Assembly: GCA_902566955.1 (NCBI GenBank)
Contig: CACFKX010000001.1
Span: 1,813 to 65,812, forward strand
Origin: an uncultured SAR86 cluster bacterium
Lineage (GTDB): Bacteria > Pseudomonadota > Gammaproteobacteria > Magnimaribacterales > AG-339-G14
Length of the DNA: 64,000 nucleotides
Direction: 5' to 3'
The notes beneath the pieces were generated by a model, which saw nothing but the letters and a program-made list of their open reading frames with translations, was not told the DNA's origin and did no database searches. A program made the translations under genes and the position numbers. Positions 8,092-11,560 of this stretch are shown one piece after another. Position 1 is the first letter of the stretch. Each line of letters starts with the position of its first letter.

Positions 8092-11000
8092 TTAACCTCC
8101 AGGCGTTGTTCCATCTACTGTGAGTACAATGCAAGCTTCCACTATTTCTCCGTGATCAACACATGTTTCACCGCTGTTAAGCATGGAAGAATCGTCAGGT
8201 GCTGGACCTATGAAAGCAGAATCGTACACATTAGCCTGTTGATTTTCTAATCCAGCAGGATTTGTTGTGTAGAGATTGTTAAATGAAGCTGCGTTAAGAG
8301 GTTTGAGATAGTATTCTCCTCTAAGAACCTTGGATTTTAGTTTTGTTTCACCATCTTCACCAATTAATTCTGTGCCATCAGGTATAACATATGCTGGAAA
8401 GCCTCTTACGCTTTCTCTTTCTTCTTCAGTTGCTGTTCCCCAGTCGAAATATTCCCCCAAGTCAGTCCATGTTTTGACATTAAAGTTGGTCCATTCAAAT
8501 CCCCAAAGTCTTCCAAAACCACCGTATTCAAGAGTCTTCTTTCTACCGGCGTCGCTACCAAATTTTTCTGTATCTGGAAGAACAACGCTTACTGCTTCTG
8601 GTCTTGATATTTCTACGAGAGAAGCATCATCTCCAGATCCATCAAAGACTTGATAATTTGTCCAAGGATCGAAATGGATTTCATAGAATTCATTCATCTT
8701 CCAGAGCTTGGAATTACAATATCTAAAATAAACGTTTCTATTGTTTTGTACGGTTGAGTCTGAATGATATTCGTACTCATCCGGAGTACCATCATAATCA
8801 GTATCAACTGTTTTTTCGCACTCAACTTCGGCTTTATTATCCATATCGAATAAAGTCATGTGATTTTTCATGCCCCAACAGTCTGTGTCTACTCCATTGG
8901 GTTCTCTGATACAGATTTTTTGCTCGAATTTATCCCATGGATCGTTTAGCTCATACATTTGCGCAGGTAAGGCAAGAGGTGTCTTAGCTGAGCCAGTATT
9001 TGACACTGCTAATGAATCTCCGACAACTTCATACGTAACCACCTCAGTAGACATTACGCCTTCTTGAGTCCAGTTTCCCTTTTCAGATCCAGCTCTTACG
9101 TATGGACCTGTAATAAGATCGCCAGTACCGGCAATAATTGCGGGACTGGTATAAGGACTTGACACTATTCCAGATCCAGGATTATCTGCGGTTCCTTCAT
9201 TAATCTTGGCTAGGGCCTCAGTAAAGTAAGCCGTCATGCCTTCGCCCGAAAGACATCTTTCGATGCATCCTAAAGTCTTTCCTGTTAATCCTGAAACAGA
9301 TATATCTTTTTCAGTTCTTCTGCTTACTAATTCTGCAGTTGGATCTTGAAGTGAATCAGCTTTAATTTCGTAACCTTGACCTCTTCCATGGGCCCAAAGG
9401 TTTCTCCAAACTTGATAACCGTTAGAGCTTTTCCTATCATCATCCCAAACCTCTACGTATTCATCAGGAGTAAATGTGAAAGGAGTAATGTCTACTTCTT
9501 TGACCCATCTGTTGTTAACTTCTACGACTGCTTTATCAAAAACAAAACTTGGAATTGCTCCAGAACCTTCTGTGGCATAGGCTGCATCCCAATATCCTAA
9601 GAAAATATTATAAGGATTCCCATTTTCATCGGTAAGATCAGCTGGCAATCCTAGGTCTCTCCATCTGTCTAGGTTGCATCTATCATCTTCACCGTTACCA
9701 TTGTTGTCCATGTCATCATCTTGAAGAGTAGTTCCTCCGTTGTAAGATTTGTAATCATTCCACCAACAATTAACTCCCGTTTCTGATCTATCCCATTCAA
9801 TATGAAGGTTAAGTTCCACTCCTGAAAGGCTATTTAGCGATACTTTATCCACAGTCATCTTCCTGATACTTATTTTCCTTTGTTTTAAGTAATAAGAATT
9901 CGTATCGTCTGAATTAACCTTTTTGAACACAGTTGTATCAGTAAGGTTCTCCCTTTTTTTCTCATCAACGTGAGTTCCCCAATAATCTGCCCAAGCATAA
10001 ATTGGTTCAGTTCGATCTTCATCGTAGGGACTTTGAAACTCTTCTTCAGATTTCAACTCAAAACCTGGATTCTTCATATCGTATCTGAGGTCATCAGCAG
10101 CTGTGTAAAGTCCGTATTCCCAAACTGCAAGTTTTGCATCATCTGCACTTGTAGATTCGCATATCTCAGTCAGACCTTGAGCTGGACCGCCTTCAGCTAA
10201 CCAAGGATAATTCCCAAGATCCCAATCAATGTTTTTCCATTCTTCTGTAATATCTGTAAATGTATCTTCTGCACCATCTTGACCTACTCTTCTGGTAGCC
10301 TTAACTAATTTTTTGCAAGAGGCTTTGGTTGTTTCATCAAACGAAAAGCCGTAAGTTGCATCAACGGCGTAAGTCAAAGGATTTCGTGGATCCATGTCAC
10401 CGCAACCAGCGGAATCTCTATCTTGATAATCGATAAATTTATTATCGATAATACATTCCCACCAATTTACTTGCCAAAGTCCATCTCTACCATTTTCATT
10501 GTCTGTTAGTAATATACTTCTTCCATTAGGACCAACGAAAAGGACTTTACTGTCCATCGTGTCTAATTTACCTGAGCCCAATTGAGAACCAACAGGCGGA
10601 CATTTCCAAAATTTTTCCATGTGTCTGTACCAAGCATCTTGACCTTCCGATAAACCAAGTTCAGCAGCAGCAGCCCGCGCTTCTTCATCACTCTGGTAAG
10701 GAGCGTTTTGACAATTTGATTCAGCTACAAAATCTAGCTCTATGTCTCCGTTAGGATCATCTTCAGTTGCGCCTGACCATACTTTTGTTAACGCGTAGAT
10801 AATTTGATCGGGCTGGGCATCCCACATCCCTTCGTAACTTTCTTGAGCTTCGGAATAATCATTTTTTTGATAAAACCAAGATTTAACCTCTAAATAATCT
10901 TGTTGCTTAACCTCACTGAAAGCTGATTTGACATCGACTATCATCTCACTGGCAAGTTCAACTTCGTTGTTGTTATTATTATTGTTATTTCCTCCTTGCG

Positions 11001-11253
11001 CAGCATTTTGAGCATCAGCTCTAGCGCCTGCAACATCACATCGGCTATCAAATACTTGAGCCTTATAAGGGCCTTTATCTATAAATTGTTCAGCTTTGAT
11101 TTTTGAAATAATGCAGAGAATATTATTAGCAGTATTAAGGGTCTCTTCGACTTCGTTATTTGCTGTATAGATTTCAGCAGTATCTTGAGAATAAGTCTGT
11201 GAAAATATTAGTGAAGGTATTGTTAAAAGTAAGAAAAGTGTAAATTTATTCAT
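8092..11253 (-). CDS. Large secreted protein of unknown function (1,053 aa; Cys/Trp/Asp-rich)
   Basis: Long uninterrupted ORF. Start placed at ATG 11253, which has an AGGAG Shine-Dalgarno 5 nt upstream. Signal peptide [19 protein letters not shown], about 20 Cys, Asn8 run; no catalytic motif recognised. Confidence 0.8.
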
Positions 11254-11278
11254 TTGATCTCCTAGTTTATGAATGAGA

Positions 11279-11560
11279 TTAATCAACTTTTATAGCTTCT
11301 ACCTTTCCAGGTAGAACGTATTGAGATGGGTCTATATTAGTTGAAGTTCCAGTTGATCCACTTCCAGTTCCTGTTCCGGTGCCTGAACCTGAGCCTGAGC
11401 CTGAGCCTGAGCCTGAGCCTGTGCTCGAACCTGAGCCAGTGCTCGATCCTGAGGAAGAACCGGATGTGCCAACTGAAGATGAGGACGAGCCTCCTCCACC
11501 GCCGCAAGAGGCAAGGATTACAAAAGTTAATATTAATAAGAATGACCCTAATCTATTCAT
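11279..11560 (-). CDS. Small lipoprotein with long Gly/Ser/Thr low-complexity linker
   Basis: 93 aa; signal peptide plus lipobox (FVILASC), about 55 residues of G/S/T repeats, then [19 protein letters not shown]; stop lies 25 nt before the large ORF start. Confidence 0.7.
11382..11423. repeat. Hexanucleotide tandem repeat (CCTGAG)n inside the lipoprotein gene
   Basis: Five perfect CCTGAG units at 11388-11417 with degenerate flanking units; encodes (GS)n/(GT)n on the minus strand. Confidence 0.9.

Follow-up and report, generated by a model that had tools for sequence, protein, structure and literature searches.

Here we describe a two-gene unit on the minus strand of contig CACFKX010000001.1 from an uncultured SAR86 cluster bacterium (assembly GCA_902566955.1), located within a 64,000-nucleotide (nt) stretch that we refer to as the window. 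The upstream gene encodes a small lipoprotein of 93 amino acids (aa) and the downstream gene a secreted protein of 1,053 aa, and our analyses suggest that the two may be the separately encoded parts of a single divided lipoprotein. An initial annotation had described two genes with a 25-nt gap, an AGGAG Shine-Dalgarno sequence, a Sec signal peptide on the second product, a run of eight asparagines (Asn8), and a tRNA-Pro gene 5 nt away, all of which were confirmed on the minus strand (Table 1). The large open reading frame (ORF) runs from an ATG at 11253 to a stop codon at 8092-8094; the AGGAG sits 5 nt ahead of this ATG, and the tRNA-Pro(GGG) gene starts 5 nt past the stop. The ORF list had the large gene start at a TTG 11 codons earlier, overlapping the stop codon of the lipoprotein gene, but the ATG preceded by the Shine-Dalgarno sequence is the more credible start.

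Table 1. Features of the two-gene unit and its downstream neighbor, in window coordinates.
Feature	Position	Strand	Basis
Small lipoprotein gene, 93 aa	11279-11560	minus	Sequence read
Signal peptide and lipobox (L-A-S-C, Cys19) of small lipoprotein	11504..11560	minus	Sequence; lipobox-CGGGG in homologous upstream ORFs
G/S/T linker, residues 20-74, flexible spacer	11339..11503	minus	Sequence; orthologue variation
C-terminal peptide, residues 75-93, proposed docking strand	11282..11338	minus	Conservation, pN/pS, register in position-specific scoring matrix (PSSM)
25-nt intergenic spacer with AGGAG Shine-Dalgarno	11254..11278	minus	Sequence; metatranscriptome contigs cross spacer
Sec-type signal peptide, large protein residues 1-18	11200..11253	minus	Sequence; putative cleavage site
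Mature large protein (~1,035 aa) and stop	8092..11199	minus	Homologs, AlphaFold2 model
Asn8 run, residues 89-96 of large protein	10966..10989	minus	Sequence
tRNA-Pro(GGG), neighbor only, outside unit	8010..8086	minus	ARAGORN

Contigs from marine metatranscriptomes in two studies lie along both genes, and the 25-nt gap is crossed by X12 record 15 (11190-11312, no mismatch) and by X16 record 23 (11209-11559). Upstream of the lipoprotein gene, at 11625-11785, metatranscriptome depth is zero. The pair is expressed in the sea as one transcript, with the caveat that assembled metatranscriptomes can hold some DNA. A scan for promoters and terminators returned no more sites than were found in shuffled sequence.

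The lipobox of the small protein fits the pattern [LVI][ASTVI][GAS]-C, and an equivalent lipobox was identified in all 18 SAR86 upstream ORFs and in about 80 upstream ORFs from outside SAR86. Almost every member has Gly at position +2 (CGGGG); if the Escherichia coli rule of Lol avoidance through an Asp at this position also holds in SAR86, the small lipoprotein would go to the outer membrane. The linker comprises 55 residues of Gly, Ser, and Thr with one Val. Its length and composition vary freely among orthologs, such that mature SAR86 lipoproteins range from 54 to 75 aa; in soil and freshwater relatives the linker is 18-48 aa and differs in composition (Gly/Ser, Pro-rich, or Ser-rich). Profile matches of the small ORF (TrAA12, FEA1_rel_lipo, and others) were far under their cut-offs and were discarded as low-complexity artifacts.

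The C-terminal peptide behaves differently from the linker. Among 15 loci of the SAR86 ortholog clade it follows the pattern INPADY[IV]LP.KVEAI[AK]VE, in which K-V-E-A-I is invariant while each of those codons varies synonymously. Across the last 18 codons of the 15 genes, the proportion of synonymous differences (pS) is 0.68, which is near saturation, and the proportion of nonsynonymous differences (pN) is 0.13, yielding a pN/pS of 0.19. Because pN/pS is this low at near-saturated synonymous sites, the constraint acts on the peptide as protein rather than on RNA or a ribosome-binding site. Among relatives with large partners that share just 49-91% identity, the linker spans 18-48 or 36-57 residues and the peptide is nearly fixed. 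The peptide is thus under purifying selection, and the linker drifts freely.

The large protein is very acidic (185 Asp and Glu against 92 Lys and Arg) and contains 32 Trp (3.0%) and 18 Cys; the description of the protein as rich in Trp, Asp, and Glu therefore stood, whereas the earlier count of about 20 Cys was slightly high. Fourteen of the Cys are invariant within SAR86 and, together with the Sec signal peptide, they fit an oxidizing extracytoplasmic compartment. A small residue at position -1 and mature N-termini that align across the family point to the probable site of signal-peptide cleavage, after residue 18 and ahead of QTY. The Asn8 run lies in a low-complexity, disordered loop (residues ~73-100) that follows Cys72 and has a predicted local distance difference test score (pLDDT) below 50; relatives have a Q/S/A/G-rich low-complexity stretch at the same position. 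An acidic loop at ~9676-9741 (residues ~505-526), with the SAR86 pattern D.(N/D)SNGEDDRC, resembles calcium-binding D-x-D-x-N-G loops and is located within a lower-confidence insertion specific to SAR86 and marine sequences.

The unit had been termed an orphan, yet the large protein belongs to a family with hundreds of members in several phyla. A word-indexed search returned 43 clusters of ~1,000-1,075 aa, all unannotated. In a profile search of 1.84 billion representatives, 530 clusters at 50% identity passed E <= 1e-3 and 251 passed E <= 1e-10; their lengths were ~730-1,490 aa. A second search with a diverse profile returned 437 clusters at E <= 1e-10. Every named cluster in the second search was a 'hypothetical protein' and no Pfam domain was present in any; Burkholderiaceae, Ideonella, Sulfuricaulis, Steroidobacter, and Nitrospirota are among the sources named. 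The family occurs in at least three phyla (Pseudomonadota, Nitrospirota, and Nitrospinota). Close homologs are all from SAR86 cluster single-cell genomes and metagenome-assembled genomes (MAGs), and the 43 clusters of the word-indexed search form three SAR86 clades at 59-89%, ~43%, and ~36% identity. All three paralogs are present in SAR86 genome AG-915-K19 (L016, L021, and L022), and genome AG-453-B11 matches three identity classes (L011, L024, and L025), one of them just partially at a contig end.

Consistent with the initial annotation, which had recognized no motif in the large ORF, searches of Pfam and NCBIfam identified no family for the protein, profile searches of PDB sequences with the family were empty, and a Pfam scan of 55 diverse members revealed no shared family. 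A Calx-beta domain is present as an insert in P0048 and P0065, both of them long relatives, but is absent from the window protein, and assignment as a Calx-beta surface protein was rejected since the domain is only an insertion in those two. Residues that are invariant family-wide are mainly Gly, Pro, Cys, and aromatics. The polar invariants are D24, N43, R390, R950, K975, and E980 (alignment A3, with window numbering by conversion), and no His or Ser is invariant across the family alignment. All of the invariant Cys look structural. Because polar invariants are few and include no His or Ser, our tentative guess is that the large protein serves at the envelope in binding or as a scaffold rather than in catalysis.

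The C-termini of the large proteins differ among lineages. SAR86 proteins end in ...DGTTPGG or ...ACQ. Homologs of ~750 aa from soil and freshwater (L026, L027, L029, L030, L035, and L066) end in ...RVIQGEVKY, ...VKW, or ...VEY; their terminal aromatic recalls the outer-membrane beta-signal, and SAR86 proteins extend beyond this point without it. Soil homologs do terminate in Y or W, although their Gly is displaced by one residue relative to the beta-signal consensus. In one Proteobacteria MAG (L028, 3818-6166), the family member occurs as two consecutive ORFs of 150 and 618 aa, which is probably a frameshift, pseudogene, or assembly error. A literature search on SAR86 metaproteomes returned no mention linkable to the large protein.

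An AlphaFold2 model built from 23 SAR86 sequences reached a pLDDT of 67.8 and a predicted template modeling score (pTM) of 0.47. A second model, built from 72 sequences spanning the family, reached a mean pLDDT of 79.8 and a pTM of 0.69, with most of the core above 85-90 and a mainly beta-sheet structure with interspersed helices. Foldseek searches of the PDB identified no neighbor for either model (best E of 0.014 for the first and 0.27 for the second, with template modeling (TM) scores <0.2), and a search of BFVD with the second model returned nothing real; a BFVD match at E 1.5e-4 had a TM score of 0.08 and was considered meaningless. Matches of the first model to GH32, teneurin, and Rhs structures were insignificant and were gone with the better model. 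A TonB-dependent receptor or other outer-membrane beta-barrel was likewise rejected, with no match to Plug or TonB_dep_Rec and with TonB-receptor structures recovered only at E >0.2 and TM <0.1. Neither Pfam nor Foldseek thus linked the large ORF to any characterized family, and by these tests its predicted fold has no solved relative.

Co-occurrence of the two genes in relatives, which the initial annotation had proposed as a check on their association, proved to be near-universal across distant lineages. A small lipoprotein gene is immediately upstream of the large gene at 15 of 15 loci of the SAR86 ortholog clade and at all three loci of the 36%-identity SAR86 paralog clade, where the conserved C-terminus is AINPTAYKLPKKIKVVEIEQ. 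The same arrangement was identified in seven of seven genomes of other Proteobacteria (up to 72% GC, the guanine-plus-cytosine content) and, in a scan that used alignment A4, at 74 of the 75 metagenome loci that could be evaluated among 80 examined; in both sets the lipoproteins end in G[IVL]ATP..[VIM][SA]VVTA... The sole exception, L066, is disrupted at its 5' end. In all, >95 loci from lineages that range from 30% to 72% GC keep the lipobox and peptide. Inspection of the seven neighborhoods outside SAR86 provided no functional clue, and nothing was conserved in them except the small lipoprotein. Collectively, these observations mark the small lipoprotein as an obligate partner of the large protein.

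Two arrangements depart from this one-to-one pairing. In a marine metagenome relative (L120, 1584-7991), one lipoprotein of 166 aa is followed by two tandem large paralogs (948 and 996 aa), indicating that one anchor gene can accompany more than one large gene; this lipoprotein has an extra domain of ~100 residues between its linker and C-terminal peptide. Loci of the 43%-identity SAR86 clade (SAR86 L019-L021 and L023, and L001) have no upstream lipoprotein, and at L001 the next gene, 18 nt after the paralog, encodes an acidic DUF3764 protein of 88 aa that lacks a signal peptide (9739-10005).

Further evidence for a link between the two proteins comes from natural fusions. The homolog in Nitrospirota (including Candidatus Troglogloeales), in Nitrospinota, and in several lineages from metagenomes is a single ORF of ~785-925 aa that comprises a signal peptide, a lipobox, a G/S/T linker, a strand of the form '[AS]L.VA.K[VI]SVV[DES]', ~25-35 further residues, and then the conserved core, which begins ...DY.KDK..[IV]YV.ERS......NEILC. 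At least 14 homologs are fused in this way (L031, L032, L034, P0146, P0165, P0172, P0175, P0182, P0187-P0189, P0303, P0305-P0309), and the order of elements in the fusions is the order in the split pair. Fused homologs P0165, P0303, and P0305-P0309 share the lipobox-linker-strand-core architecture and are 20-22% identical to a chimera of the window proteins across the shared alignment. They differ in being a single polypeptide with a second short conserved element, PL.IG.F[KR][LV], at the position where split forms instead have a stop codon, the intergenic spacer, and the signal peptide of the large protein. The two-gene pair therefore qualifies as a Rosetta-stone (fusion/fission) functional pair.

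To compare the peptides with the fused strand, a PSSM built from fused and gammaproteobacterial strands was scored on SAR86 peptides and on shuffles of them. The PSSM always picks one register, with LP.KVEAI.V aligned with VA.KVSVVDA, and the shuffle p-value is 0.002 for the peptide of the 36% clade. For the ortholog clade the p-value is 0.06-0.28, which is not significant alone. Because of this, homology of the window peptide to the fused strand rests on its likeness to the 36%-clade peptide and on the shared architecture.

These data lead us to propose that the two genes form one operon encoding a lipoprotein divided into two polypeptides. The small gene would provide a lipid anchor, a flexible G/S/T spacer of ~55 residues, and an amphipathic, strand-like peptide of 18-19 residues, and the large gene would provide a Sec-exported, disulfide-bonded, very acidic, and beta-rich protein of an undescribed family and fold. 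Both proteins would cross the inner membrane separately, after which the small protein would be lipidated and, with Gly rather than Asp at residue +2, sorted to the outer membrane. Its C-terminal peptide would then bind the folded large protein, probably by beta-strand addition, holding it on a leash with a reach of up to roughly 15-20 nm on the outer membrane. Fusions in the Nitrospirota and Nitrospinota would make the same arrangement in cis. A functional partnership of some kind between the two proteins is close to certain, and we lean, if narrowly, toward the view that the anchor of the small protein tethers the large protein to the outer membrane. The adjacency of the genes, their co-transcription and broad conservation, the natural fusions, and the selection on the peptide are established by the data, whereas we infer that the peptide binds the large protein, that the pair resides at the outer membrane, and what the large protein does.

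Several observations weigh against a tether of this kind. Docking was evaluated indirectly with AlphaFold2 using a chimera in which a GS spacer of 30 residues joined the mature lipoprotein to the mature large protein, with an alignment of 7 natural fusions and 64 other homologs. Residues 1-103, including the peptide, were left at pLDDT <30 with no secondary structure, so the proposal in the initial annotation that the C-terminal peptide docks the large protein did not gain a positive result. The core folds confidently without the peptide, which is therefore not a missing structural strand. Few alignment rows covered the peptide, the output included neither contacts nor predicted aligned error, and the chimera was a single-chain device rather than a multimer; the disordered peptide is accordingly weak evidence against docking and not a refutation. 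In addition, the putative placement of the small lipoprotein at the outer membrane borrows the +2 rule from E. coli, and the 43%-identity SAR86 paralog clade has no lipoprotein of its own, although it always occurs in genomes that also hold other copies. The proposal of a lipid-anchored leash that serves the large protein is strongly favored by adjacency, fusions, selection on the peptide, and co-transcription, while the disorder of the peptide in the chimera counts, weakly, against its docking.

Some of these same observations would be expected if the proteins were linked but not bound via the peptide. The peptide might instead contact a third component (an outer-membrane barrel, peptidoglycan, or an export factor), or the lipoprotein might serve transiently as a pilot or chaperone, bringing its partner to the outer membrane or the cell surface before releasing it. 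Pilotin-type small lipoproteins are an established kind, one SAR86 paralog clade manages without a lipoprotein of its own, and AlphaFold2 left the peptide undocked beside a core model that is complete and confident without it. However, the strand is covalently joined to the core in the fused homologs, an arrangement that favors the core as its site of action, and no third neighbor gene is conserved in any lineage examined, making a third component or pilot unlikely. A distinctly doubtful alternative would cast the large protein as an extracytoplasmic enzyme from a new family, such as a hydrolase or lyase acting on dissolved organic matter of high molecular weight, with the lipoprotein only retaining it on the cell. 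Such a role is compatible with tethering and fits the SAR86 lifestyle, streamlined SAR86 genomes still keep up to three paralogs, and the composition (rich in Trp, Tyr, Asp, Asn, and Gly) is like that of many carbohydrate-active proteins; moreover, the first, low-confidence model weakly matched GH32 enzymes and a levan utilisome (E 0.014-0.1). Those matches vanished with the better model, however, and none of the 55 diverse members has a Pfam, NCBIfam, or PDB sequence match. The nature of the invariant residues, described above, also argues against catalysis, and no carbohydrate- or peptide-utilization genes are conserved nearby. Assignment as a glycoside hydrolase or peptidase was rejected on the basis of the missing family match, the GH32 fold matches that were not reproduced, and the lack of an invariant His or Ser.

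The remaining alternatives question whether the small ORF or the locus itself belongs to a conserved system. That the small ORF is a decaying remnant of gene fission, or a leader for translational coupling, and that the large protein is soluble in the periplasm and acts alone, is very improbable. The complete signal peptide of the large protein, the paralog clade without a lipoprotein, and the failure of AlphaFold2 to dock anything would suit such a scenario, but retention of the lipobox and peptide in so many loci of such different GC and the constraint on protein rather than RNA are contrary to it, and streamlined SAR86 genomes would be expected to lose a useless ORF. Still harder to credit is a horizontally acquired orphan island inserted beside tRNA-Pro, an idea hinted at in the initial annotation and in line with the raised GC of the unit (0.40-0.42 against 0.32-0.35 in the flanks) and with the tRNA gene just downstream of the large gene. 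The GC of the large gene is indeed elevated (0.396 against 0.32-0.35 in its neighbors), but the excess is in codon positions 1 and 2 (0.51 and 0.40), whereas GC at the third position (GC3) is 0.278 and close to the ~0.25 of neighbors. The raised GC is therefore attributable to amino acid composition (rich in Asp, Glu, Gly, and Ala) and not to foreign DNA. The gene order pheT, ihfA, MerR-like gene, lipoprotein gene, large gene, saccharopine dehydrogenase-like gene, and photolyase recurs in SAR86 genome L002, the one other SAR86 genome with which full flanking gene order was compared, and a MerR-like gene and the lipoprotein gene are directly upstream at 15 of 15 SAR86 ortholog loci. With the locus present and syntenic in 15 SAR86 genomes, native GC3, no integrase among the neighboring genes in the window, and a family that is wide and old, an island at the tRNA gene was refuted.

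Among genes near the unit, a gene for a MerR-family regulator of 109 aa (11600-11929, minus strand) immediately precedes the lipoprotein gene and overlaps ihfA at the end of the latter. Only a 52-aa C-terminal piece of the MerR-like gene (7516-7674) was called in L002. Metatranscriptome depth is approximately zero over the MerR-family gene, while the lipoprotein operon has coverage. Elsewhere in the window, a 1,044-aa ORF (35278-38412, minus strand) was considered as a paralog of the large protein and rejected, being a fusion of NeuB (sialic/nonulosonic acid synthase), SAF, a CTP_transf_3 cytidylyltransferase, and a GT2 glycosyltransferase. This ORF combines predicted synthesis, activation, and transfer of nonulosonic acid on one polypeptide and is located in a low-GC (0.27-0.31) glycan region.

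The nearest mechanistic precedent for the SAR86 pair is YdbH-YnbE, which likewise consists of a small lipoprotein encoded beside a large beta-rich envelope protein. In E. coli, YnbE is a small outer-membrane lipoprotein that is proposed to interact with the adjacent large beta-rich YdbH by beta-strand augmentation (PMC11126948). The two systems nonetheless differ in several respects. YdbH has an inner-membrane transmembrane helix, chorein-N and AsmA domains, and a lipid groove, whereas the SAR86 large protein has a cleavable Sec signal peptide, no AsmA, TamB, or DUF748 match, and no Foldseek match to TamB or YhdP structures. The small SAR86 gene is upstream of its partner and has no match to the YnbE family, whereas the ynbE-type gene is downstream. 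Membership in an AsmA-like or YdbH-YnbE group was thus rejected on the grounds of no Pfam match (for the window proteins and the 55 members), no transmembrane anchor, and no fold match.

Other systems share single elements with the pair. LpoB and LpoA are outer-membrane lipoprotein activators of penicillin-binding proteins PBP1B and PBP1A, in which a long disordered linker reaches a partner away from the membrane. LpoB has a globular domain at its end, through which it binds UB2H of PBP1B, whereas the SAR86 lipoprotein has only ~18 residues after its linker; it has no LpoB Pfam match, and its partner is not a penicillin-binding protein. Secretin pilotins (PulS, OutS, and MxiM) are small outer-membrane lipoproteins that recognize a short peptide and thereby determine the destination of a large partner. 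The pilotin itself is globular and the peptide comes from the secretin, whereas the SAR86 pair is reversed, with the peptide contributed by the lipoprotein; genes for a secretin or for type II or III secretion are absent nearby. In chaperone-usher systems, donor-strand complementation provides a strand in trans that completes or extends a beta-sheet; the SAR86 pair has no Ig-like pilin fold, usher, or chaperone, and the AlphaFold2 core is complete without such a strand.

Lipoproteins with flexible tethers and small lipoproteins that bind big partners are thus of a known kind. What appears to be new is a minimal lipoprotein (anchor, spacer, and 18-residue peptide) that is conserved with a partner whose predicted fold has no solved relative, in a pair that spans bacteria of the ocean, soil, and groundwater and for which matching fused forms exist. 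Possibly, although we advance this with some reservation, the pair is the first recognized case of a widespread lipid anchor that acts in trans, non-covalently tethering a separately exported protein of new fold in organisms from SAR86 to soil Gammaproteobacteria and Burkholderiales, with a fused counterpart in Nitrospirota.

SAR86 bacteria, whose genomes are streamlined, rank with the most abundant heterotrophs in ocean surface waters. Despite this streamlining, SAR86 keeps up to three 3-kb paralogs of the large gene and expresses the gene in situ, and the family to which these belong comprises hundreds of clusters with no name, no domain annotation, and no structural neighbor. Pairing rescues a small upstream gene that is easily overlooked by annotation and yields a concrete hypothesis, namely that a lipid anchor is supplied in trans. 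The split and fused forms provide a natural system for examining how lipoproteins divide into anchor and cargo and, if binding is confirmed, the 18-residue peptide and linker would constitute a compact natural tag for protein display at the outer membrane. If the anchor does act in trans, the large protein would define a new extracytoplasmic superfamily with a major role in the envelope or in nutrient capture in abundant ocean bacteria.

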